Below are positions 1,037 through 55,707 of a DNA stretch of 64,000 bases, one piece after another (the stretch's first letter is position 1; each line of letters begins with the position of its first letter). The DNA lies in NCBI GenBank assembly GCA_015067305.1, contig SVMT01000001.1, forward strand, positions 28,749 to 92,748, in the 5' to 3' direction. Made by a program: the position numbers and the translations under genes. The notes below the pieces were generated by a model. That model made no database searches, was not told where the DNA came from, and worked only from the letters and a program-made list of their open reading frames with translations. The stretch is from Oscillospiraceae bacterium (GTDB taxonomy: Bacteria; Bacillota; Clostridia; Oscillospirales; UBA644).

Positions 1037-1051
1037 TATAATGATTATAGA
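1037..1051 (+). promoter_or_regulatory. solo copy of the M135 terminal motif TATAATGATTATAGA (contains a -10 hexamer)
   Basis: Same 15-mer plus following AATT as at 23494-23512. It is preceded by TCAACA at 17-nt spacing. It points antisense into the 1105-2205 gene, so its function is unclear. Confidence 0.3.
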
Positions 1052-1069
1052 AATTAAGAATCTATTCTA

Positions 1070-1097
1070 CTAAAACCTAATACCTATAACCTAAAAC
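1070..1097. repeat. heptad array, CCTAA sense (4 units)
   Basis: CTAAAAC CTAATAC CTATAAC CTAAAAC with a strict 7-nt period. It is complementary to array 2229-2263 on the other side of the same gene. Confidence 0.9.
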
Positions 1098-2205: not shown

Positions 2206-2228
2206 AGGAATTCTCCTTTTTACTATAT

Positions 2229-2263
2229 TTAGGTTTTAGGTATTAGGTATTAGGTTTTAAGGT
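2229..2263. repeat. heptad array, TTAGG sense (5 units)
   Basis: TTAGGTT TTAGGTA TTAGGTA TTAGGTT TTAAGGT. Inverted partner of 1070-1097. Confidence 0.9.
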
Positions 2264-2274
2264 TTTTGAGATTT

Positions 2275-10003: not shown

Positions 10004-10111
10004 CAGCCAAAAAGGAATTTTCTATTAATTCCAGGCTGTTTTTATTTTTGCAAAAACAGACCGCAAATATAATATTTAATTTTTAACTAAAGCCTTAGTA
10101 TCAAGTAAAAC

Positions 10112-10146
10112 CTAATACCTAACACCTAAAACCTATAACCTAACAC
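10112..10146. repeat. heptad array, CCTAA sense on plus strand (5 units)
   Basis: CTAATAC CTAACAC CTAAAAC CTATAAC CTAACAC, abutting the recF stop codon. It reads as UAG-N4 repeats in the recF 3' UTR. Confidence 0.9.
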
Positions 10147-11211
10147 TTACTTGATTATTTTTCCGTTTTCAACTCTCATGACCTTATCCCCGACCCCATC
10201 GGGAACATCGCAGGAAGTAATAATTACCTGCTTGCCCTTGATACGGTTAGTTATGAAATCTTTTCTCTGTTCGTCCAGCTCGGAAAGCACATCATCGAAA
10301 AGCAAAAGAGGATATTCTCCGTGAGCTTCTTCGATCATATCAGCCTCAGCCAATTTCAGACAAAGAACTATTGACCGTTGCTGACCCTGGGACGCAAAAC
10401 GTCTTGAGCTATTACCGTTTATAAAAAGATCAAAGTCGTCCTTATGTGCTCCTATCTGTGAGTAACCTGAATGTATCTCTTCACTTTTCAGCTTACAGAT
10501 TTTTTCAAAAAGCTCGTATTCGTCATTGGTCTCGCCACTGACCGTATATTCAGCCGTCAGAGTTTCAGTATCTCCTGAAATTTCCGCAAGATATTTCAGC
10601 GCATTTCCCGTGAGTTTTTCACAATATGTCCGCCTCGTATTACTTATTATTGAAGAAAGTTTTGCCTGACGGGCGTTCCATATTTCAAGAGTATCAATAT
10701 TTGCACCGTCTGCATTTTTCAACAGATGGTTTTTTTGCGCCAATACACGGTTATATTCGGATAAAACTTCATAATATCTCGGTTTTATCTGACTTATGGA
10801 CATATCAAGAAATTTTCTCCGCACATCGGGACCGCTTTTTATAAGGGAGAGCTGTTCGGGGAAAAACAAAACAGCAGGAAATTTACCCAGCATTTCGCCT
10901 TGTTTGACTTTGATCCCATTTATGTGTATCTGCTTTGTTTTTGTATCAAAAAACCGAAGCTCTGCCTCATAATCACGTCCGTTTCTTGAAAAAACTCCTG
11001 TTACAGAAGCTGAATCACAGCCGTTGCGGATAAATTCCTTTTCATTCGGGGTCCTGAAACTACGACCTGACGTAAAAAGCCACACAGATTCCATTAAATT
11101 AGTCTTTCCTTGGGCATTTTTACCGGAAATTATATTAGAACCCTCACAAAACTCTACTTTTTCCGAAGTAAAATTTCTGTAATCGCGAAGTGCGATGGAT
11201 TTAAGGATCAT
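10147..11211 (-). CDS. recF: DNA replication and repair protein RecF
   Basis: 354-aa ORF with Walker A GKNAQGKTNLMES and signature SQGQQRS...LLLFDDV. It overlaps the dnaN stop. Confidence 0.93.
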   Translation of the reverse strand: MILKSIALRDYRNFTSEKVEFCEGSNIISGKNAQGKTNLMESVWLFTSGRSFRTPNEKEFIRNGCDSASVTGVFSRNGRDYEAELRFFDTKTKQIHINGIKVKQGEMLGKFPAVLFFPEQLSLIKSGPDVRRKFLDMSISQIKPRYYEVLSEYNRVLAQKNHLLKNADGANIDTLEIWNARQAKLSSIISNTRRTYCEKLTGNALKYLAEISGDTETLTAEYTVSGETNDEYELFEKICKLKSEEIHSGYSQIGAHKDDFDLFINGNSSRRFASQGQQRSIVLCLKLAEADMIEEAHGEYPLLLFDDVLSELDEQRKDFITNRIKGKQVIITSCDVPDGVGDKVMRVENGKIIK

Positions 11212-25103: not shown

Positions 25104-25248
25104 TAGGCCTTAGGCCTTAGGTGTTAGGTGTTAGGCCTTAGTGTAAAATAAATTAAAAAAACAGCTACCGCTAATTTTGTTGCGGTAGCTTTTATAATTA
25201 AAAAACTGTAACCTACTAAAACCTAACACCTAAAGCCTAAGCCCTGTG
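25104..25248. terminator. T1 composite bidirectional terminator element
   Basis: The core hairpin AGCTACCGC-10 nt-GCGGTAGCT (25163-25190) has an A run before it and a T run after it. Its conserved arms are CCTTAGTGTAAAAT... and ...TATAATTAAAAAACTGTAACCT. The whole element is flanked by inverted TTAGG/CCTAA heptads. It lies between convergent mnmE and pflA. Confidence 0.8.
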
Positions 25249-25250
25249 GT

Positions 25251-25994
25251 TTAAACCCTAATTTCTTTAATTCCCTTTAGAATCTGTTCCTTTGCCTTGA
25301 TTGCCGCTTCTTGTGAAGTCTGTGGCACCCCGTCCAATGGGTAAGAAATTCCAAGTTCTGCGTATTTGTGAACTCCAAGGGTGTGGTATGGCAGTACATC
25401 CAGCGTTTTCACAGATTTCAAACCCCCGATGAACCGCCCTAGCGCACGCAGATCCTCCGCTTCGTCCGTCCAATTCGGCACTACCACGTGTCTGATGGTC
25501 ATTTTTACACCCTTTTCGCTGACAAATTTCGCAAAATCAAGCACATTTTCATTGCTCATGCCTGTCAGCGCCTTATGTTTTTCGGGGTCAATATGCTTGA
25601 TATCAAGCATCACAAGATCGGTAAATTTGAGCAATTTCTCTGTTTTTTGCAAATTTTCGCTGTTGAATCTGTTGAAAACTATTCCCGAAGTGTCCAAACA
25701 AGTATGAATTCCCGTTTTTTTCGCCTTTTGGAACAGCTCCGTCAGAAAATCTATTTGCAAAAGAGGCTCTCCACCCGTCGCGGTTATGCCCCCTTTGGAA
25801 TAAAACGCCTTATTTTTATTATAAAGCTCTAAAATTTCCTCCGCAGACATCTCCGTTCCGTCGCCGATCTTCCATGTTTCCGGGTTGTGGCAGAATTTAC
25901 AGCGCAAAGGACAGCCCTGAAAAAAGACTACAAGTCTTATCCCGGGGCCGTCCACTGTTCCGAAACTTTCTGTTTGCCTGATGTATCCGTTCAT
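25251..25994 (-). CDS. pflA: pyruvate formate-lyase activating enzyme (radical SAM)
   Basis: 247-aa ORF with GCPLRCKFCHNPETW (CxxxCxxC) and GGITATGGEPL. Confidence 0.92.
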   Translation of the reverse strand: MNGYIRQTESFGTVDGPGIRLVVFFQGCPLRCKFCHNPETWKIGDGTEMSAEEILELYNKNKAFYSKGGITATGGEPLLQIDFLTELFQKAKKTGIHTCLDTSGIVFNRFNSENLQKTEKLLKFTDLVMLDIKHIDPEKHKALTGMSNENVLDFAKFVSEKGVKMTIRHVVVPNWTDEAEDLRALGRFIGGLKSVKTLDVLPYHTLGVHKYAELGISYPLDGVPQTSQEAAIKAKEQILKGIKEIRV

Positions 25995-28450: not shown

Positions 28451-28479
28451 ATTATAGCACAAAATTCAAAGAAATACAA
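28451..28479 (-). promoter_or_regulatory. pflB promoter (extended -10)
   Basis: Minus strand reads TTGTAT, 17 nt, TATAAT preceded by TGTGC. It is part of a ~60-nt module also found inverted at 30609-30668. Confidence 0.6.
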
Positions 28480-28523
28480 GAGGTAAAACAGTACATTTTA
28501 GTGCTAAATTATGGAGAGATAGG

Positions 28524-28600
28524 GATTAGGTCATAGGCCTCAGGGGTTAGGCCTTAGGCCATAGGGTTTAGGTATCAGGTATCAGGTATTAGGTGTTAGG
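28524..28600. repeat. heptad array, TTAGG sense, 11 units
   Basis: GATTAGG TCATAGG CCTCAGG GGTTAGG CCTTAGG CCATAGG GTTTAGG TATCAGG TATCAGG TATTAGG TGTTAGG. Exact 7-nt register throughout. Confidence 0.92.
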
Positions 28601-28717: not shown

Positions 28718-28978
28718 GTGATGAAAGTGTCAAAATGGGAAAAGCTTCTTTCCAGAATAAAAAATCTTGATAAAAACATGAGATTTGCGGAGTTGAAAAA
28801 GATTCTTGAAAGCTACGGTTATGAAATGCGAAGTCCTTCGGGAGGAAGCAGCCATTGCACTTTCCGAAAAAAAGGACGAAATCCAATCACAATCCCAATG
28901 CATGAACCGATAAAAACTGTATATATTCTTATGGTAAAAGAAATAATTGAAATGGAGGAAAATAATGAAAACTCTTGA
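28718..28978 (+). CDS. hicA: HicA-family mRNA interferase toxin
   Basis: ~85-aa ORF: ...LKKILESYGYEMRSPSGGSSHCTFRKKGRNPITIPMHEPIKTVYILMVKEII. Overlaps the downstream antitoxin gene. Exact start (28718/28721/28727) is uncertain. Confidence 0.8.
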   Translation: MMKVSKWEKLLSRIKNLDKNMRFAELKKILESYGYEMRSPSGGSSHCTFRKKGRNPITIPMHEPIKTVYILMVKEIIEMEENNENS

Positions 28979-29327
28979 TTTTTATATGAATCTTCCTTAT
29001 AAAATGGAGATAATCCCCGATAGTATTGAAGGCGGCTATGTTGTAAAGTTCCCCGAACTTCCAGGTTGCTTGACTTGTTGCAGTTCGATGTCCGATATTG
29101 CTGCTGTTTCTACGGATTGTAAGCGCCAGTGGCTTCTTGCCGCAATGGAGGACGGTTCCGAGATCCCCGAACCAACATCTGCAGACGAATTTTCAGGTCA
29201 GTTCAAACTCCGTCTGCCCAAATCACTCCATAAAACACTTTCGGAAAAATCAAAAGAGGAAGGTGTCAGCATGAATCAATATTGCGTATATCTGCTGACA
29301 AAAAATAATTCCCTTTATACTAAATAG
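28965..29327 (+). CDS. hicB: HicB-family antitoxin with C-terminal RHH-like DNA-binding tail
   Basis: From ATG 28965 (GGAGG upstream): MKTLDFYMNLPYKMEIIPDSIEGGYVVKFPELPGCLTC...FKLRLPKSLHKTLSEKSKEEGVSMNQY. Confidence 0.85.
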   Translation: MKTLDFYMNLPYKMEIIPDSIEGGYVVKFPELPGCLTCCSSMSDIAAVSTDCKRQWLLAAMEDGSEIPEPTSADEFSGQFKLRLPKSLHKTLSEKSKEEGVSMNQYCVYLLTKNNSLYTK

Positions 29328-29457
29328 GCCACAGGATTTAGGCCTTAGTGTAAAATGATATAATAATAAGAGCTACCGCAATATTTTCGTTGCGATAGCT
29401 TCTATAATTAAAAAAATGCAACCTTACTAAACCCTACGGCCTGTGGCCTAACACCTA
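29326..29457. terminator. T1 composite bidirectional terminator element
   Basis: Same architecture as 25104-25248. Core is AGCTACCGC-12 nt-GCGATAGCT (29371-29400), flanked by TTAGG/CCTAA heptads, between convergent hicB and the 29458 ORF. Confidence 0.8.
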
Positions 29458-30060
29458 CTATGCCCTGGTATCTGTAATTACGGCTTGCATATTACCCGTT
29501 TTATTTTCTTTTATCTTCATATTTATCAGTTCCTGAGCCTTTGTCTCTGAGTCGACGGCTAAGACAAAATAAAGATTTTCCTCGGTTTTAGGACAAATAA
29601 GAAGCATTCCTTCACAGGCGTTGACCCATTTTATCTCATTATAACGCAAGTTGAATCTATGCAAAGTTCCCGGTCTGTCTCCGAAGCCGAAATAAATGCC
29701 CTCAATATTTTCTTCTCTGACAAAAACAAATGTATTGCACATTTGCTTAAACGCATAATGATGGGAAAACGGCGTGAATGTATCAAGAAGTATTTTGTTG
29801 ACCCCTGTTTTTAATATTTTGAATTCCTCACTAAAATGTGCTGTCTGCCTTCTTAATAAAGGTTCACGGTCAAAACCACAATAAAGGCAAATATTGCAAT
29901 GTGTAATTTGTCGTCCGCAGTTTTCGCAGAATGTAAACCGTTCTGACCAATCATAAAATTCTTCACCGAACATTTTATAGTATCCGAATTTTTTTATTCT
30001 GAATTCTCTTATGATCTTCCCAAACGCATGTTGGCTTTTCAATGCAACCTTGTACTTCAT
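29458..30060 (-). CDS. hypothetical protein with Cys-rich zinc-ribbon-like segment
   Basis: 200-aa ORF with FCENCGRQITHCNICLYCG. I recognise no family. RBS GAAAGAAGG. It lies 22 nt downstream of the terminator of structured RNA 1. Confidence 0.6.
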   Translation of the reverse strand: MKYKVALKSQHAFGKIIREFRIKKFGYYKMFGEEFYDWSERFTFCENCGRQITHCNICLYCGFDREPLLRRQTAHFSEEFKILKTGVNKILLDTFTPFSHHYAFKQMCNTFVFVREENIEGIYFGFGDRPGTLHRFNLRYNEIKWVNACEGMLLICPKTEENLYFVLAVDSETKAQELINMKIKENKTGNMQAVITDTRA

Positions 30061-30081
30061 AAAATACCTTCTTTCGTTAAT

Positions 30082-30245
30082 AAAAAATGCGCCCCGAAGG
30101 ACGCATGAAAAAATGTTTCCTTCCGTTAGCTGTCACACGAACGTATTTCAAATCACACAAAGGGATTGAGAAGTGAAGAAAACACCTTTTACCAAGGTAT
30201 TTTCCCCTTTATGATTTGAAATAGTAATATTAAATTCGTGTGACA
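30082..30245 (-). ncRNA. structured RNA, copy 1 (~164 nt), unknown family
   Basis: Own promoter at 30251-30279. Long imperfect hairpin (GTCACACGAA.../...TTCGTGTGAC) is capped by a 27-nt apical hairpin (30178-30204) identical in copy 2. Terminator is ATGCGTCC-TTCG-GGGCGCAT plus a U run (30106-30082). Confidence 0.6.
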
Positions 30246-30250
30246 TGATG

Positions 30251-30279
30251 ATTATACCATATTTTATGGGTTTTGTCAA
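30251..30279 (-). promoter_or_regulatory. consensus promoter of structured RNA 1
   Basis: Minus strand reads TTGACA (30279-30274), 17 nt, TATAAT (30256-30251). Confidence 0.75.
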
Positions 30280-30330
30280 TATATAAAGAAAAATAAGATC
30301 TCCTTATCTATTAAAATTAAATTGAGCAAC

Positions 30331-30494
30331 AAAAAATGCGCCCCGAAGGACGCATGAAAAAGTGCTTCCTCCATTGTTACCACGCAATGTATAATCATAT
30401 CTTTCAACGAGATAGGTTATCGAGAGAAAACACCTTTTACCAAGGTATTTTCTCGTTGAAAATATATAATTATACAAATAAGCGTGGTAAGCTT
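30331..30494 (-). ncRNA. structured RNA, copy 2 (~164 nt), paralog of copy 1
   Basis: Own promoter at 30501-30529. Outer stem TTACCACGC/GCGTGGTAA has a different sequence from copy 1 but the same architecture. Apical hairpin (30426-30452) and terminator (30355-30331) are identical to copy 1. Confidence 0.6.
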
Positions 30495-30500
30495 GATTTT

Positions 30501-30529
30501 ATTATAGCATACTTTTGGGGAAATGTCAA
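30501..30529 (-). promoter_or_regulatory. consensus promoter of structured RNA 2
   Basis: Minus strand reads TTGACA (30529-30524), 17 nt, TATAAT (30506-30501). Confidence 0.75.
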
Positions 30530-30568
30530 GATACAAAGGGCTTCGAAGATTAAAGTTATAATTAAAAC

Positions 30569-30596
30569 CTAATACCTAAAACCTAGCACCTAAACC
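30569..30596. repeat. heptad array, CCTAA sense (4 units)
   Basis: CTAATAC CTAAAAC CTAGCAC CTAAACC. Inverted relative to array 28524-28600 at the other edge of the islet. Confidence 0.88.
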
Positions 30597-30639
30597 CTAT
30601 TGAAGCCTAATTTAGCACTAAAATGTACTGATTTCTCCA

Positions 30640-30668
30640 TTGTATTTCTCTTAATTTTGTGCTATAAT
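30640..30668 (+). promoter_or_regulatory. secA promoter (extended -10)
   Basis: TTGTAT 30640-30645, 17 nt, TATAAT 30663-30668 preceded by TGTGC. Confidence 0.6.
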
Positions 30669-30732
30669 GAAATGTAGAATTATAATTATGCCTTTTGGGG
30701 CTTTGAAAACATAGATTTGAAAGGACATTTTA

Positions 30733-33474
30733 ATGGGACTTTTTGATTTCTTTGGAAATTACAGCAAAAAAGAGCTGAAAAAGATCGATCCGATCATCAA
30801 AAAAATAAATGCATTGGAGCCTGACTTCCAAAAGCTTACAGATGCGGAACTCCGCAACAAAACAGAAGAATTCAAGAAACGTTACGCAGAGGGCGAAAGC
30901 CTCGATTCCATGCTCCCCGAAGCTTTTGCGACGGTGAGAGAGGGGGCGGTACGTGTTCTCGGCATGAGACATTACGACTGCCAGCTTATCGGCGGTATCA
31001 TTCTGCATCAGGGCAGAATTGCGGAAATGAAAACAGGTGAAGGTAAGACACTTGTGGCTACTCTTCCTTGTTACCTCAATGCGCTTACAGGAAAAGGCGT
31101 CCATGTTGTTACAGTCAATGAATACCTTGCACGCCGTGACAGCGAGTGGATGGGCAAAGTTTACAGATTTTTAGGTCTTTCCGTCGGTATTATTTCCCAC
31201 GACATGAATAACGACGACCGCAGAAAAGCTTATGCCGCTGATATTACTTACGGTACAAACAACGAATACGGCTTCGACTATCTCCGTGATAATATGGTTC
31301 TTTATAAGGAACACATGGTTCAGAGAGGTCATGCTTTTGCTATCGTGGACGAAGTTGACTCTATCCTCATTGATGAAGCAAGAACTCCTCTTATTATTTC
31401 AGGTCAGGGCGACCAGAGCGACGATATGTACGAAAAAGCAAATGCTTTCGTAAAAAGACTGAGATGCTTGCGTGTAAAAGAGATCGACAACAAGGAATCC
31501 ACCGATAATATTGCCGAAGATTACATCGTTGACGAGAAAAACAAGACTGCTGTTCTGACCAAAAACGGTATCGAAAAGGCTCAGAGAGTTTTCAATGTGG
31601 AAAACTACGCAGATTCCGCAAATGTTGAACTCCAGCACTATATCAATCAGGCGATCAAAGCTCACGGCACAATGCAGAGAGATGTTGACTACGTTGTGAA
31701 AGACGGCGAAGTTATTATCGTTGACGAATTTACAGGTCGTCTGATGTACGGCAGAAGATTCTCCAACGGTCTGCACCAGTCCATCGAAGCAAAAGAGGGC
31801 GTAAAGATCGAAAACGAATCCAAGACCCTTGCAACTATAACTTTCCAGAACTACTTCAGAATTTACGGAAAACTTTCAGGTATGACAGGTACGGCGCTGA
31901 CTGAAGAAGAGGAATTCAAGGAGATATACTCCCTTGACGTTATTGAAATTCCCACAAACAAGCCAATGATACGTATGGATAATAACGACCAGATCTACAA
32001 GACAGAAATGGGAAAATTCAACGCAGTTGTAGGAAAGATCAAAGAATGTAACGAAAAAGGGCAGCCTGTTCTCGTTGGTACGGTTACTATTGAAAAATCC
32101 GAACTTCTCAGCAAAATATTGAAAAAAGAAGGCATCAAACATAATGTTTTGAACGCAAAATACCACGAAAAAGAAGCGTCCATCATTGCTCAGGCAGGTA
32201 AAAAAGGCGCTGTGACCATTGCCACAAACATGGCAGGTCGTGGTACGGACATCATGCTTGGCGGTAACACCGAATATCTGGCAAAAGCGCAGATGGAAAA
32301 AGAGGGCTTTGAACATGACCTCATCGTTGAAGCTACGGGCAAAGCTGATACAAATGACGAAAATATCCTCAATGCGAGAGCAAGATACGAAGAGCTTTAT
32401 GCGCAGTTCAAACCTGTTGTTGAAGCTGAAGCGGAAGAAGTTAAGGCTGCCGGAGGTCTTTGCATCATCGGTACGGAAAGACACGAATCACGCCGAATCG
32501 ACAATCAGCTCCGCGGACGTTCAGGCCGACAGGGTGACGTGGGCGAAAGTACCTTCTTCCTTTCCCTTGAAGACGACCTTCTGAGACTTTTCGGCGGCGA
32601 AAGAGTTTCCCGCATGGCTGAAATGATGAATCTGCCCGAAGATGAAGCCATTGACGCAAAAATTCTCTCAAATGCTATTGAAAATGCACAGAAAAAGGTT
32701 GAAAGCGTAAACTTTGCACGCAGAAAACGTGTCCTTGAATACGACGATGTTATCAACCAGCAGAGACATATTATTTACGAACAGAGAAGACAGGTCCTTG
32801 ACGGTGAAGACCTTAGAGCCACAGTTCTCAAGATGCTCGACGATGTTATATCCAATGCGGAAGAGCAGTTTATGGCAGACGAACAGCCCATAAACTGGGA
32901 TTTTGAAGGTCTCCGTCAGCGTTTCATGGGTATTTTCCTCGGAAAAGACGATTTCAGATACAGCGATGAAGAACTCACAAAGCTCAAGAAAAAGGATGTT
33001 GACGAATTCCTCCGCGGCAGAGCAAAAGAAGCGTATGAGCGCAGTGAAAACGACAACACACCCGAAAAAATGCGTGAACTTGAACGTGTTGTATTGCTGA
33101 AGACCGTTGACAAATATTGGATGGAACACATCGACGCAATGGATGACCTGAAACAAGGTATTTCACTCCGTGCGTACAGCAACCGTGACCCCGTTCTTGA
33201 ATACAAATTTGAAAGTTTTGACATGTTCGACGAAATGATAAATACTATCAAATTCGAGACTGTCAGAAACTGCATCTGCCTCAGAATAGTGCGTCCTGAA
33301 ATGATCCAGCGTCGTTCTGTTGCAAGACCAGCCGATCCTGCCACAACAGCAGGCATGGGCGGCGGACCAAAAGAACCTGTAAAGAAAAATTCCACAGAAA
33401 AAGTGGGCAGAAATGACCCCTGTCCCTGCGGAAGCGGCAAAAAGTACAAAAAATGCTGCGGAGCGAATGAATAG
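30733..33474 (+). CDS. secA: preprotein translocase ATPase SecA
   Basis: 913-aa ORF with [14 protein letters not shown] (Walker A), [31 protein letters not shown] and C-terminal Zn finger [13 protein letters not shown]. Confidence 0.97.
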
Positions 33475-33790
33475 GGCTTAGGTATTAGGTTATAGGTGTT
33501 AGTTTTGGTAAGGTTACAATTTTTTAATTATAAAAGGGGCTGGCTCATTTAGCGCAGAACAAAAGCCCCCCTTGAAATTTAAGACAATTTTTAACTAAAA
33601 AAATACTGTCCATATTTTTAAAATGTTGAAATCCACCGAATTTTCGGTGGATTCCTTCAATTATATGGGGCTTTTTAGTCTCGATTTGGCTCTCTACCGT
33701 ACCCACGTACGCCGACGAGAACCAAATCGCGCCTTCTGCATCTAACTGAGCTACCCCCTGTTTTTTATCTATTTTACACTAAGGTCGAAA
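33473..33790. repeat. expanded T1-type element with ~220-nt nested core
   Basis: Arms AGGTTACAATTTTTTAATTATAAAAG (33511-) and CTGTTTTTTATCTATTTTACACTAAGG (-33784) match the arms of 25104-25248 in inverted order. The core is bounded by imperfect inverted repeats GGGGCTGGCTCATTTAGCGCAGAA (33536-33559) and TTCTGCATCTAACTGAGCTACCCCC (33734-33758), and holds the extra hairpin 33628-33655. Confidence 0.7.
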
Positions 33791-41785: not shown

Positions 41786-42045
41786 ATTTAAAGGGAGAGG
41801 GTATTCTTTTCGCGTGAAAAGAATACCCTCTCCCTTAGACCCTCACCCAAGAAAAGCGGGTGGGAATAAATGCAAAGTGCAAAACGCAGAATGCAAAATT
41901 GGTAACACTTGTTTCCGCCAACTCAAACTTAATCTTTGCAAAAAACTTGTTTATTTCGATACGAAGATCTTTTTGAAGAATCTTGTTTCGGTTTTCTTTC
42001 TGAAAGGGTTTAAGGGAAAACTTTTTCTTTTTTCGTGAAAAGAAA
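41786..42045. repeat. ~260-bp direct repeat, left copy (flanks the GH43 gene)
   Basis: Near-identical to 44315-44575. Contains R2 hairpin 41793-41834, a TGCA heptad block (41868-41900) and a truncated second R2 hairpin. Confidence 0.9.
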
Positions 42046-42105
42046 GTACGCTATCTGACTCACCCAAGAAAAGCGGGTTGGGGGTGTTTTTTGGGTTTAA
42101 AATAC

Positions 42106-44314: not shown

Positions 44315-44575
44315 ATTTAAAGGAAGAGGGGCTTCTTTTCGCGTGAAAAGAAGCCCCTCTCCCTCAGACCCTCACCCAAGAAAAGCGGATGGGAATAAAT
44401 GCAAAGTGCAAAACGCAGAATGCAAAATTGGTAACACTTGTTTCCGCCAACTCAAACTTAATCTTTGCAAAAAACTTGCTTATTTCGATACGAAGATCTT
44501 TTTGAAGAATCTTGTTTCGGTTTTCTTTTTGAAAGGGTTTAAGGGAAAACTTTTTCTTTTTCCGCGAAAAGAAGA
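44315..44575. repeat. ~260-bp direct repeat, right copy
   Basis: Matches 41786-42045. Hairpin 44322-44363 differs from 41793-41834 by two compensatory base-pair changes. Confidence 0.9.
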
Positions 44576-44636
44576 ATGTTTTTCAGCTACTTGCTTAAAA
44601 AATATTGTGTCATATTCTTAAATTTGAACCCCAAGG

Positions 44637-44703
44637 TCGGTTTTCTTTTTGAAAGGGTTTAAGGGAAAACTTTTTCTTTTTTCGCGAAAAGAAAAAGTTT
44701 TCC
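44637..44703. repeat. third, partial copy of the repeat 3' end with intact R2 hairpin
   Basis: TCGGTTTTCTTTTTGAAAGGGTTTAAG, then GGAAAACTTTTTCTTTT-TTCGCG-AAAAGAAAAAGTTTTCC (17-bp stem). Confidence 0.85.
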
Positions 44704-54577: not shown

Positions 54578-54621
54578 TAGGAAACGATGAAAAGTCGGAA
54601 AGTTGTTGAATATAAGGTGGG

Positions 54622-54698
54622 GTTTAGGCCATAGGCCGTAGGCCTTAGTAAATTACTGATAAGAAATTACAGCTACCGCAACAAAATCTGCGGTAGCT
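54622..54698. repeat. T1-type element (heptads plus AGCTACCGC hairpin)
   Basis: GTTTAGG CCATAGG CCGTAGG CCTTAGT, then AGCTACCGC-10 nt-GCGGTAGCT (54671-54698). Confidence 0.75.
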
Positions 54699-55588: not shown

Positions 55589-55707
55589 TGATAGGTTTTA
55601 GGTTCTGGGTGTTAGGTTATAGGTTTCAGGTTATAGGTTTTAGGTTATAGGTTTCAGCATATATTCTAACATCTAATACCTAACACCTAATACCTCATAC
55701 CTCATAC
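55589..55707. repeat. ~120-nt imperfect palindrome built from inverted heptad arrays
   Basis: Nine TTAGG-sense heptads (55589-55651: TGATAGG TTTTAGG TTCTGGG TGTTAGG TTATAGG TTTCAGG TTATAGG TTTTAGG TTATAGG). Six CCTAA-sense heptads follow (55666-55707). Confidence 0.9.

Follow-up and report, generated by a model that had tools for sequence, protein, structure and literature searches.

A previously undescribed family of structured RNAs precedes small accessory genes in Oscillospirales-type gut bacteria as a proposed attenuation leader

The DNA considered here is a 64,000-nt stretch of contig SVMT01000001.1 from an Oscillospiraceae bacterium (GenBank assembly GCA_015067305.1, positions 28,749 to 92,748 of the forward strand), in its full length referred to as the window. 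On its minus strand, positions 30081-30529 hold two head-to-tail cassettes spaced ~249 bp apart, each with its own promoter, a structured RNA and an intrinsic terminator, and the downstream cassette is followed by a 200-aa open reading frame (ORF). The two tandem units are members of a previously undescribed family of structured RNAs. The units are flanked by ordinary housekeeping genes, in the window PFL and its activase, hicAB and secA. The features of the locus are given below; P1, P2 and P3 are the stems of a long hairpin, B and A are two mutually complementary segments, and bit scores refer to the covariance model R1.

30501..30529, minus strand: promoter of unit 2, the upstream unit; TTGACA-17-TATAAT with TG extension, 12/12 motif match
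30330..30494, minus strand: unit 2 RNA, ~160-165 nt from predicted start to the end of the U run; R1 101.7 bits, E 6.5e-21, and fold
30377..30490, minus strand: unit 2 long hairpin, predicted fold
30490-30482 with 30385-30377, minus strand: P1 of unit 2
30476-30455 with 30408-30388, minus strand: P2 of unit 2
30454-30442 with 30436-30424, minus strand: P3 of unit 2
30426..30452, minus strand: invariant apical hairpin of unit 2, 27 nt, identical to that of unit 1
30357..30372, minus strand: A-box of unit 2, GGAGGAAGCACUUUUU, complementary to B at 30438-30423, AAAAGGUGUUUUCUCU
30331..30355, minus strand: intrinsic terminator of unit 2; stem-loop 30355-30336, U run to 30331
30251..30279, minus strand: promoter of unit 1, the downstream unit; TTGACA-17-TATAAT with TG extension, 12/12 motif match
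30081..30245, minus strand: unit 1 RNA, ~164 nt; R1 114.5 bits, E 8e-24, and fold
30131..30245, minus strand: unit 1 long hairpin, predicted fold
30245-30234 with 30142-30131, minus strand: P1 of unit 1
30223-30205 with 30164-30144, minus strand: P2 of unit 1
30204-30194 with 30188-30178, minus strand: P3 of unit 1
30178..30204, minus strand: invariant apical hairpin of unit 1, 27 nt, identical to that of unit 2
30108..30123, minus strand: A-box of unit 1, GAAGGAAACAUUUUUU, complementary to B at 30190-30175, AAAAGGUGUUUUCUUC
30082..30106, minus strand: intrinsic terminator of unit 1; stem-loop 30106-30087, U run to 30082
29458..30071, minus strand: putatively gated gene; ribosome-binding site (RBS) GAAGG 30071-30067, ATG 30060, 200-aa ORF

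An initial reading of the DNA from its letters, here called the sequence-only reading, had described two RNAs of ~164 nt under perfect TTGACA-17-TATAAT promoters, and both promoters indeed match at 12 of 12 positions, each with a TG-extended -10 box. The terminators are identical, as had been claimed: ATGCGTCC-TTCG-GGGCGCAT followed by a T run is found at 30355-30336 and 30106-30087, which in both RNAs reads AUGCGUCC-UUCG-GGGCGCAU and then a U run. So is the 27-nt apical hairpin GAAAAUACCUU-GGUAA-AAGGUGUUUUC at 30204-30178 and 30452-30426, for which zero matches are expected by chance and of which the 64-kb window holds no third copy. Each RNA is predicted to form a single long irregular hairpin plus the terminator. 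The predicted folds are far more stable than those of dinucleotide-shuffled sequences (approximately -31 kcal/mol; none of 200 shuffles was as good for either unit), with -61.6 kcal/mol (z = -7.7) for unit 1 and -65.5 kcal/mol (z = -9.1) for unit 2. The outer and middle stems, P1 and P2, had been said to differ completely between the copies yet to remain paired, and they are unrelated in sequence and paired in both (GUCACACGAAU/GUUCGUGUGAC and UAUUUCAAAUCAUA/UGUGAUUUGAAAUA in copy 1, UUACCACGC/GCGUGGUAA and UGUAUAAUUAUAU/AUAUGAUUAUACA in copy 2). The complementarity noted between a purine-rich segment before the terminator and the 3' strand of the apical hairpin turned out to be longer than claimed, 16 bp in each copy (30123-30108 with 30190-30175 in unit 1, 30372-30357 with 30438-30423 in unit 2), and the compensatory change reported within it is present as an A-U to G-C difference between the copies. 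The 22-nt spacing to the ORF holds as well, the ATG at 30060 lying 21-22 nt past the U run of unit 1.

The fold had not been recognised as that of any described family. Searches with the 4227 models of Rfam 15, where a score at or above the gathering threshold of a family counts as a match, gave no matches in the whole window. A relaxed search of positions 29900-30750 at E<10 had Phe_leader as its top match, driven by the terminator and scoring 27.4 bits where the gathering score is 55, so that the region matched no family at the gathering score and none meaningfully below it. In twelve other loci of the family, Rfam models matched tRNAs only and nothing over the units. An identity as 6S RNA, signal recognition particle RNA or Y RNA was rejected, as there is no Rfam match and the units are multi-copy with stems that differ in every copy. 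Full-text literature searches for the loop sequence, and for DUF2493 or YAcAr together with an RNA motif, returned no record. Nor was a record present in 200 of the 408 supplementary files of a catalogue of structured RNAs from the human microbiome (PMC8040213), and an unnamed listing elsewhere is possible. The novelty claimed for the family is thus upheld by the lack of an Rfam 15 match and by more than 150 distinct homologues rich in compensatory changes. Of the outcomes that the sequence-only reading had named as refuting, none was observed.

Homologues were collected with a 19-nt hairpin probe, ATACCTTGGTAAAAGGTGT, scanned against a collection with one genome per species, in which it matched at least 116 stretches. 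About five of these are chance hits in coding sequence; the rest, among the matches listed, are metagenome-assembled genomes (MAGs) labelled Acutalibacteraceae, Oscillospiraceae, Ruminococcus, Eubacteriales or Clostridia, and where the names of listed isolates state a host it is the ruminant gut. The covariance model R1 comprises 151 positions and 34 pairs, and its E-values are rough owing to a short calibration. At E<1e-12 it identified at least 114 units in the genome loci, 9 of them neighbours lacking the exact probe, and in the window it matched the two units only (114.5 and 101.7 bits). A metagenome scan with the pattern GCAAC..GAGG..CACTTTTTCGG, which leaves out the hairpin, added 44 R1 matches at E<1e-6, many of them in human-gut metagenome assemblies; they form a subgroup with the hairpin ACUUU-GGUAA-AAAGU, a compensatory C-G to U-A change. 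Altogether more than 150 distinct homologues were found and their stems covary, as the sequence-only reading had proposed should be looked into. All derive from MAGs or metagenomes, nearly all from Oscillospirales-type Clostridia MAGs of the ruminant and human gut. The family occurs in more than 100 species-level genomes, with several copies per genome, and the window locus itself recurs on a 213-kb JGI contig and on several ENA contigs. Two scans of viral contigs gave only chance matches, which R1 rejected, and a phage origin was dismissed as no true family member was among them.

Every true match has the same layout: promoter, P1, a loop containing AAUA, the variable P2, the hairpin, a pyrimidine-rich 3' bulge, the returning strands P2' and P1', a linker, the conserved box (A)CCGAGGGAAACACUUUUUC(GG), and finally a GC-rich terminator with its U run. 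More than 150 members carry the apical hairpin in unchanged or almost unchanged form. Units in tandem, each under a promoter of its own, are a common arrangement (the window, L001, L014, L040, L052, L070, L084, L090, L092, L102 and L108), and tandem pairs always consist of units with unlike stems.

The alignment of 114 sequences, which was ascertained by the hairpin probe, carries the evidence that the predicted stems are maintained by selection. Standard pairs occupy 96.4% of its paired cells, compared with 45-61% when the partners are slid by one to three columns, and changes on both sides of a pair are seen at 21 of the 34 pairs (435 cells versus 114 in shuffles). Compensatory changes occur at all seven pairs of P1, all eight of the terminator and three of the four basal pairs of P3. 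The uppermost 8 bp of that stem do not vary among the 114 sequences, which is partly a consequence of the probe selection; the missing variation is supplied by the metagenome subgroup and by the tandem neighbours. P2 is unalignable and differs in nearly every member. Across 146 distinct sequences it has a predicted median of 11 bp, with 122 different 5' strands, within a total of 36 bp. Internal-loop nucleotides are moderately conserved, including a single-stranded AAUA-rich loop in the 5' half, and a terminator is present in all members. G·U cells far outnumber A·C cells (706 versus 72) and the reverse strand scores only 30-42 bits with R1, hence the functional molecule is the RNA of the minus strand as stated above.

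The promoter is conserved together with the RNA. A -10 box with at least five of six matches was found in 124 of 139 distinct upstream regions, it is TG-extended in 116, and in 102 its end lies 6 nt before the first paired base of P1, from which it follows that the transcript starts at the first paired base. This conservation gives the promoter a constitutive look. A leader peptide was considered and rejected, since the RNA contains no conserved ORF and 34 of 147 members lack any AUG. A 78-aa ORF at 30336-30572 on the plus strand, antisense to the RNA units and called by a gene finder in one metagenome assembly (L231:5604-5840), is almost certainly spurious.

Copies of the cassette within one genome resemble each other in an uneven way. 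The terminator hairpin is identical in 10 of 20 within-genome pairs but in only 2.6% of between-genome pairs (loci compared: the window units, L001, L014+L031, L040, L052, L070, L083+L100, L084 and L108), and the stems of same-genome copies that share identical terminator hairpins are unrelated. The pattern is one of module-wise concerted evolution, which may stem from gene conversion limited to the conserved modules or from co-evolution with a genome-specific partner. A hybrid unit (L063:6724-6867) was also noticed, with the 5' half of one stem class, ACCACAUCACA..., and the 3' half of another, ..GGUUAGUGUCGC; it equals the tandem units of L001 (248-399 and 464-604) joined at the common apical hairpin, and arose either naturally, through a recombinational deletion between tandem copies, or as a collapse in the assembly.

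Such uniform terminators, the hybrid unit, the multiplicity of copies and their position beside poorly conserved ORFan genes are what might be expected of a selfish or mobile repeat, similar to a miniature inverted-repeat transposable element (MITE), which would move a promoter-terminator cassette without RNA-level function. We consider this highly improbable. The helix-preserving changes and the G·U asymmetry show selection on the transcript, the units keep a constant orientation and spacing relative to the RBS behind them, no copy was found on viral contigs, and copies in one genome have unrelated stems, unlike MITE copies. Selection on RNA pairing and these unrelated stems likewise speak against a class resembling MITEs or repetitive extragenic palindromes; neither target-site duplications nor a linked transposase were noticed, no systematic search for them having been made.

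The alternative pairing suggested by the sequence-only reading is conserved throughout the family. Segment B, AAAAGGUGUUUUCCUC, consists of the 3' strand of P3 flanked by two bases of the loop and the first ones of the bulge, and it can pair over 16 bp with the pre-terminator box A, GAGGGAAACACUUUUU. In this register 93.8% of cells pair, compared with 50-71% after sliding, and the helix has 10 invariant bp at its centre. Changes on both sides of a pair are rare, yet more frequent than in shuffles (20 cells versus 10.4). When the 3' half of the RNA is folded alone, the B×A helix is predicted in 113 of 114 members, usually alongside a nested hairpin in which the first bases of the P1 3' strand pair with the linker (e.g. 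CGGUUUG...CAAACUG); the column pair 137-146 is paired in all members, with a mutual information of 0.40. Furthermore, in the most divergent members (L040 at 1740-1874, L211, L135 and L009) B, its partner in P3 and A have changed jointly. The segments with two partners, i.e. B, A and the distal part of P1, are the most conserved, whereas P2, with one partner, drifts freely. This is good evidence that both folds, the long hairpin and B×A, matter. Each leader is accordingly modelled as a two-state RNA with mutually exclusive predicted folds, neither of which overlaps the terminator.

Position relative to genes was examined for the 104 units for which 350 nt or more of downstream sequence was available. 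In 82 of these (79%) a Shine-Dalgarno sequence and an ORF on the same strand begin no more than 40 nt after the U run, in most cases 12-22 nt after it, and this made a cis-acting attenuator or leader the best supported of the options raised by the sequence-only reading. About 12 of the other 22 units are the upstream member of a tandem pair, so that more than 90% of units or tandem arrays are followed by an RBS and an ORF. The downstream genes include 23 encoding YAcAr (DUF2493) SLOG proteins, a group with more than 1000 relatives, 2 encoding YpsA-like SLOG proteins, 16 for Cys-rich peptides (55-80 aa), 11 for lipoproteins (~140 aa) and approximately 28 singletons; in the human-gut subgroup a DUF4839 lipoprotein, a PASTA-domain protein and others are encoded. 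The same hairpin thus precedes unrelated genes, including several copies within one genome.

In the window, the 200-aa ORF has a C-x2-C ... C-x2-C motif resembling a zinc ribbon, with a sub-threshold zinc-ribbon match, and is called by gene finders in metagenome assemblies of the same organism. Among 5.8 billion protein clusters only the identical sequence was found, and as an orphan the protein was dropped as a clue to function. A theme of zinc or thiols, taken from the Cys-rich products, was rejected after it proved not significant with each gene family counted once. A hicA-hicB toxin-antitoxin pair (Pfam HicA_toxin and HicB; 28718-29327, plus strand) is convergent with the 200-aa ORF. Past the upstream unit, ~25 nt beyond its U run, there is a strong Shine-Dalgarno-like sequence, TAAGGAGA (30299-30306, minus strand), with no suitably spaced start codon; it may be the relic of a gene formerly located behind that unit. 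Ideas of a retron, a bridge RNA, an omega-RNA or an attC-like element were dropped, as none of the adjacent genes encodes a reverse transcriptase, recombinase or nuclease and the framing by promoter and terminator also points to an RNA product.

Type III RNA antitoxins were another option raised for the locus. ToxI consists of 34-36-nt repeats under one promoter that are processed by the endoribonuclease ToxN. Repeated RNA units upstream of a protein gene, with a terminator between, are seen here too, but each unit here is a cassette of ~250 bp under its own promoter, and the downstream genes belong to many unrelated families. This option is not supported: short processed repeats are absent, the genes behind the units have no relation to known toxins, and PADLOC and Pfam gave no toxin matches.

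The leader position, the terminator that could act as an expression platform, two conserved and mutually exclusive pairings and moderately conserved internal loops would also suit a riboswitch. The long hairpin would then be the aptamer, with its pocket in the conserved internal loops (GAAUA... on the 5' side, CUCUAAUUCC on the 3' side), and a small molecule or ion would decide between the hairpin and the B×A fold. Single hairpins with internal-loop pockets are known from the NMT1/xanthine, folE/THF-II and nhaA-I riboswitches. Nevertheless we regard a riboswitch as quite unlikely, as the downstream genes share no metabolic or transport theme (they encode SLOG proteins, a PASTA protein, lipoproteins and Cys-rich peptides, and many are ORFans), the zinc or thiol idea is not significant per gene family, conservation is highest in a fully paired apical hairpin and not in a junction, and the switch and the terminator do not overlap.

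Between the terminator and the downstream ORF there is no space for a promoter of its own, which suggests that these ORFs depend on read-through. Since they include conserved protein families they must be expressed at some time, and read-through would hence occur under some condition. No RNA structure was found that would block the terminator, which makes factor-dependent antitermination the most economical explanation, and one hairpin placed before unrelated genes, several times per genome, is the pattern expected of a shared trans-acting recogniser. Our best reading, put forward tentatively and a little short of calling it probable, is therefore a cis-acting gate opened by a trans-acting factor. 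Each unit would be a self-contained cassette in which a strong sigma-A promoter drives a structured RNA of ~140-170 nt that ends at a strong intrinsic terminator, 12-22 nt before the RBS of a small accessory gene. By default transcription would halt at the terminator and the gene stay silent, and the released hairpin RNA would be very stable, its 5' end buried in P1 and its 3' end shielded by the terminator. The downstream gene would be expressed only when RNA polymerase reads through. The trigger would be a factor, more likely a protein than a metabolite, that recognises the invariant apical hairpin, whose top consists of 5 bp (ACCUU/AAGGU) closed by the pentaloop GGUAA, while the RNA is being synthesised, and that renders the polymerase resistant to the terminator. 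By pairing with the 3' strand of the hairpin, the A-box would compete with its formation and mask the recognition site, and tandem units would act as two gates in series. The RNA family with its structure and covariation, its promoter and terminator, its place before ORFs and the conserved competing pairing are established by the sequences; regulated termination, the hairpin as recognition site and the nature of the effector are inferred, and that the effector is a protein is a more doubtful proposition than the gate itself. On the same best reading, the attenuation leader would also yield an abundant small RNA.

A precedent for such a gate is LoaP, a NusG paralogue that mediates processive antitermination: its targets, the dfn and mln operons of Bacillus velezensis, have nearly identical small leader hairpins and an intrinsic terminator, and LoaP binds the hairpin and antagonises NusA so that polymerase passes the terminator (PMC12691694). 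The likeness to the units would lie in a near-identical hairpin in the leaders of all targets and a terminator that blocks expression by default. In contrast, the LoaP hairpins have a UNCG tetraloop and precede very long polyketide operons, whereas here a GGUAA pentaloop tops a hairpin of ~35 bp, the genes are single and small, and a competitor strand is present. In the units UUCG is found only in the terminator loops, no conserved partner gene is located near them, and no LoaP-like gene was linked to them. Phage lambda offers a second comparison. In the N/nut (boxB) and PR'-6S RNA-tR'/Q systems, a constitutive promoter gives a short terminated RNA, and the genes behind a strong terminator depend on antitermination. 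The boxB hairpin consists of a 5-bp stem capped by a GNRA-like pentaloop, to which ACCUU-GGUAA-AAGGU seems similar, and by analogy with Q the motif AAUA(A/U)U at approximately +14 to +19 could be read as a -10-like pause element. The units differ from lambda in being chromosomal, spread over many loci and off phage contigs, and no boxA and no N or Q homologue was identified.

The units share the same-strand 5' leader position and the intrinsic terminator before the RBS with attenuators. In the pyr, trp and T-box leaders a middle structure overlaps the 5' arm of the terminator. The pyr leader of B. subtilis resembles the units in that one strand, here B, has two partners and a trans-acting factor at a hairpin, PyrR in that case, is thought to decide the outcome at the terminator. 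Unlike in such three-structure attenuators, a single base here separates the competing helix from the terminator, and an antiterminator could not be detected. We conclude that the units work like an attenuation leader and represent a new family of leader RNAs with an atypical expression platform.

Several observations weigh against the gate. No antiterminator helix sequesters the terminator stem: the terminator columns share mutual information only among themselves, and a classical antiterminator was rejected as the terminator does not covary with anything upstream. The sole helix that touches the terminator base, the P4 hairpin (GAGGG/UUUUC), pairs in 85.3% of cells as against 85.3% in shuffles, and was rejected because it does no better than shuffles or a slid register and lacks covariation support. 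Nothing that was computed links the two-state switch mechanistically to termination. A minority of units have no ORF behind them, and clustering of all ORFs at the loci gave only the downstream families and flanking housekeeping genes, with no linked partner protein. A U-rich tract followed by a terminator and a U tail is equally what a trans-acting small RNA (sRNA) classically looks like. Finally, the long hairpin is ~30 kcal/mol more stable than the alternative fold, and by a geometric estimate the linker is probably too short for a 16-bp B×A helix to coexist with P1 and P2. For both reasons the alternative fold would require the 5' half to be held or removed; otherwise B×A would form only as a partial pseudoknot of about 10 bp or less that replaces the top of P3.

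Removal of the 5' half is the core of another explanation, a self-masked ("caged") sRNA precursor. The 5' half would be lost by 5' trimming or by an endonucleolytic cut at the AU-rich loop, and the 3' half would refold to B×A, giving a stable RNA of ~100 nt that exposes the copy-specific P2 strand. This agrees with the independent folding of the 3' half in 113 of 114 members, including the nested hairpin of P1 3' strand and linker, with the energy gap that blocks B×A while the 5' half is present, and with the conserved single-stranded AAUA-rich loop in the 5' half. P2, however, varies freely even between orthologous loci, which argues against a conserved external target, and there is no complementarity to the downstream mRNA; we hold this explanation to be very improbable.

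A multi-copy family of trans-acting sRNAs, acting as base-pairing regulators or as a protein sponge through the invariant hairpin, has more in its favour but is still unlikely in our view. Placement before ORFs would in that case be secondary, for instance as insulated read-through. Each unit has its own strong promoter and terminator, separately promoted tandem arrays are frequent, a few copies are not followed by an ORF, and the CU-rich bases UUUUCCUCU, which resemble an anti-Shine-Dalgarno sequence, adjoin the hairpin. Tandem arrays of this kind are typical of sRNA paralogues such as LhrC1-5 of Listeria, and the CACUUUUUC tract followed by terminator and U tail presumably resembles the Hfq-binding module of enterobacterial sRNAs. 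The LhrC genes are similar to the units in their head-to-tail copies with own promoter and terminator and in CU-rich bases near hairpins, but LhrC copies have their stems in common, which differ here, and they are not placed at a fixed 12-22 nt before an RBS. This regular distance to a same-strand RBS, found in ~80% of units, is not expected of independent sRNA genes. Moreover, almost every conserved base is paired within the RNA itself, the variable arms are not preferentially complementary to the mRNA that follows, and extra target sites resembling B or A are not enriched in the window. A role of the variable arms as antisense guides was rejected, as duplex energies with the own mRNA equal those with the mRNAs of other units. 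Against their own RBSs, the 5' strands of the hairpins reach -6.9 kcal/mol versus -5.6 kcal/mol for controls (p 1.7e-6), a small effect measured with imperfect controls, and an anti-RBS role of this strand is a weak lead. A dual role as leader and released sRNA is compatible with both the gate and the sRNA explanation.

The gate would have its widest meaning as part of an undescribed, regulon-wide antitermination system of gut Oscillospirales, in which one factor reads the invariant hairpin on dozens of leaders. We regard this extension as rather unlikely. If true, the A-box would make each leader a two-state switch, the released RNAs of ~150 nt could titrate the factor, and many ORFan envelope, SLOG and Cys-rich genes would belong to a single RNA-addressed circuit. 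Oscillospirales (Acutalibacteraceae, Ruminococcaceae and Oscillospiraceae) are dominant and mostly uncultured bacteria of gut and rumen with almost no characterised RNA regulators, and the family controls, or at least precedes, ORFans that are otherwise uninterpretable. Its hypervariable stems, invariant hairpin and a competitor strand placed off the terminator do not fit the textbook terminator/antiterminator design, and explaining them could bring to light an as yet undescribed antitermination factor or another means by which RNA switches are coupled to termination. Use of R1 in annotation would reduce spurious ORF calls and flag a co-regulated set of genes. The family is large, clean and confined to an understudied clade; comparable candidates for structured RNAs are found regularly.

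Other repeats were noticed in the window. A near-identical direct repeat of ~200 nt occurs twice on the plus strand, ~2.5 kb apart (41850-42050 and 44380-44580, with a partial copy at 44640-44700), and closes with a long, perfect palindrome rich in A and T, GGAAAACTTTTTCTTTT..AAAAGAAAAAGTTTTCC. With only 18 bits from R1, this repeat has no relation to the RNA family. Intergenic arrays of NTAGGNN with a period of 7 nt (e.g. TTAGGTA TTAGGTT TTAGGTG; TAGGCCT TAGGCCA) are located at ~1050-1090(-), 2225-2265(+), 10110-10150(-), 25215-25265(-), 28519-28600(+), 29324-29348(+), 29426-29456(-), 30563-30600(-), 33472-33510(+), 54615-54650(+) and 55590-55660(+). They are found right after stop codons or upstream of genes, with one on each side of the module of RNA units and ORF, and TAGGGTTTAG with at most one mismatch occurs 17 times in the window versus 3.3 expected. 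Finally, a 106-nt inverted repeat with 78% complementarity (28451-28556 and 30563-30668) encloses hicAB, the 200-aa ORF and both units. Its arms lie just upstream of divergent housekeeping genes, PFL (start 28429) and secA (start 30733), and represent either a similar upstream element of both genes (CAGTACATTTTAGTGCTAAATTA plus a TAGG array) or the borders of an insertion or invertible region between the arms.

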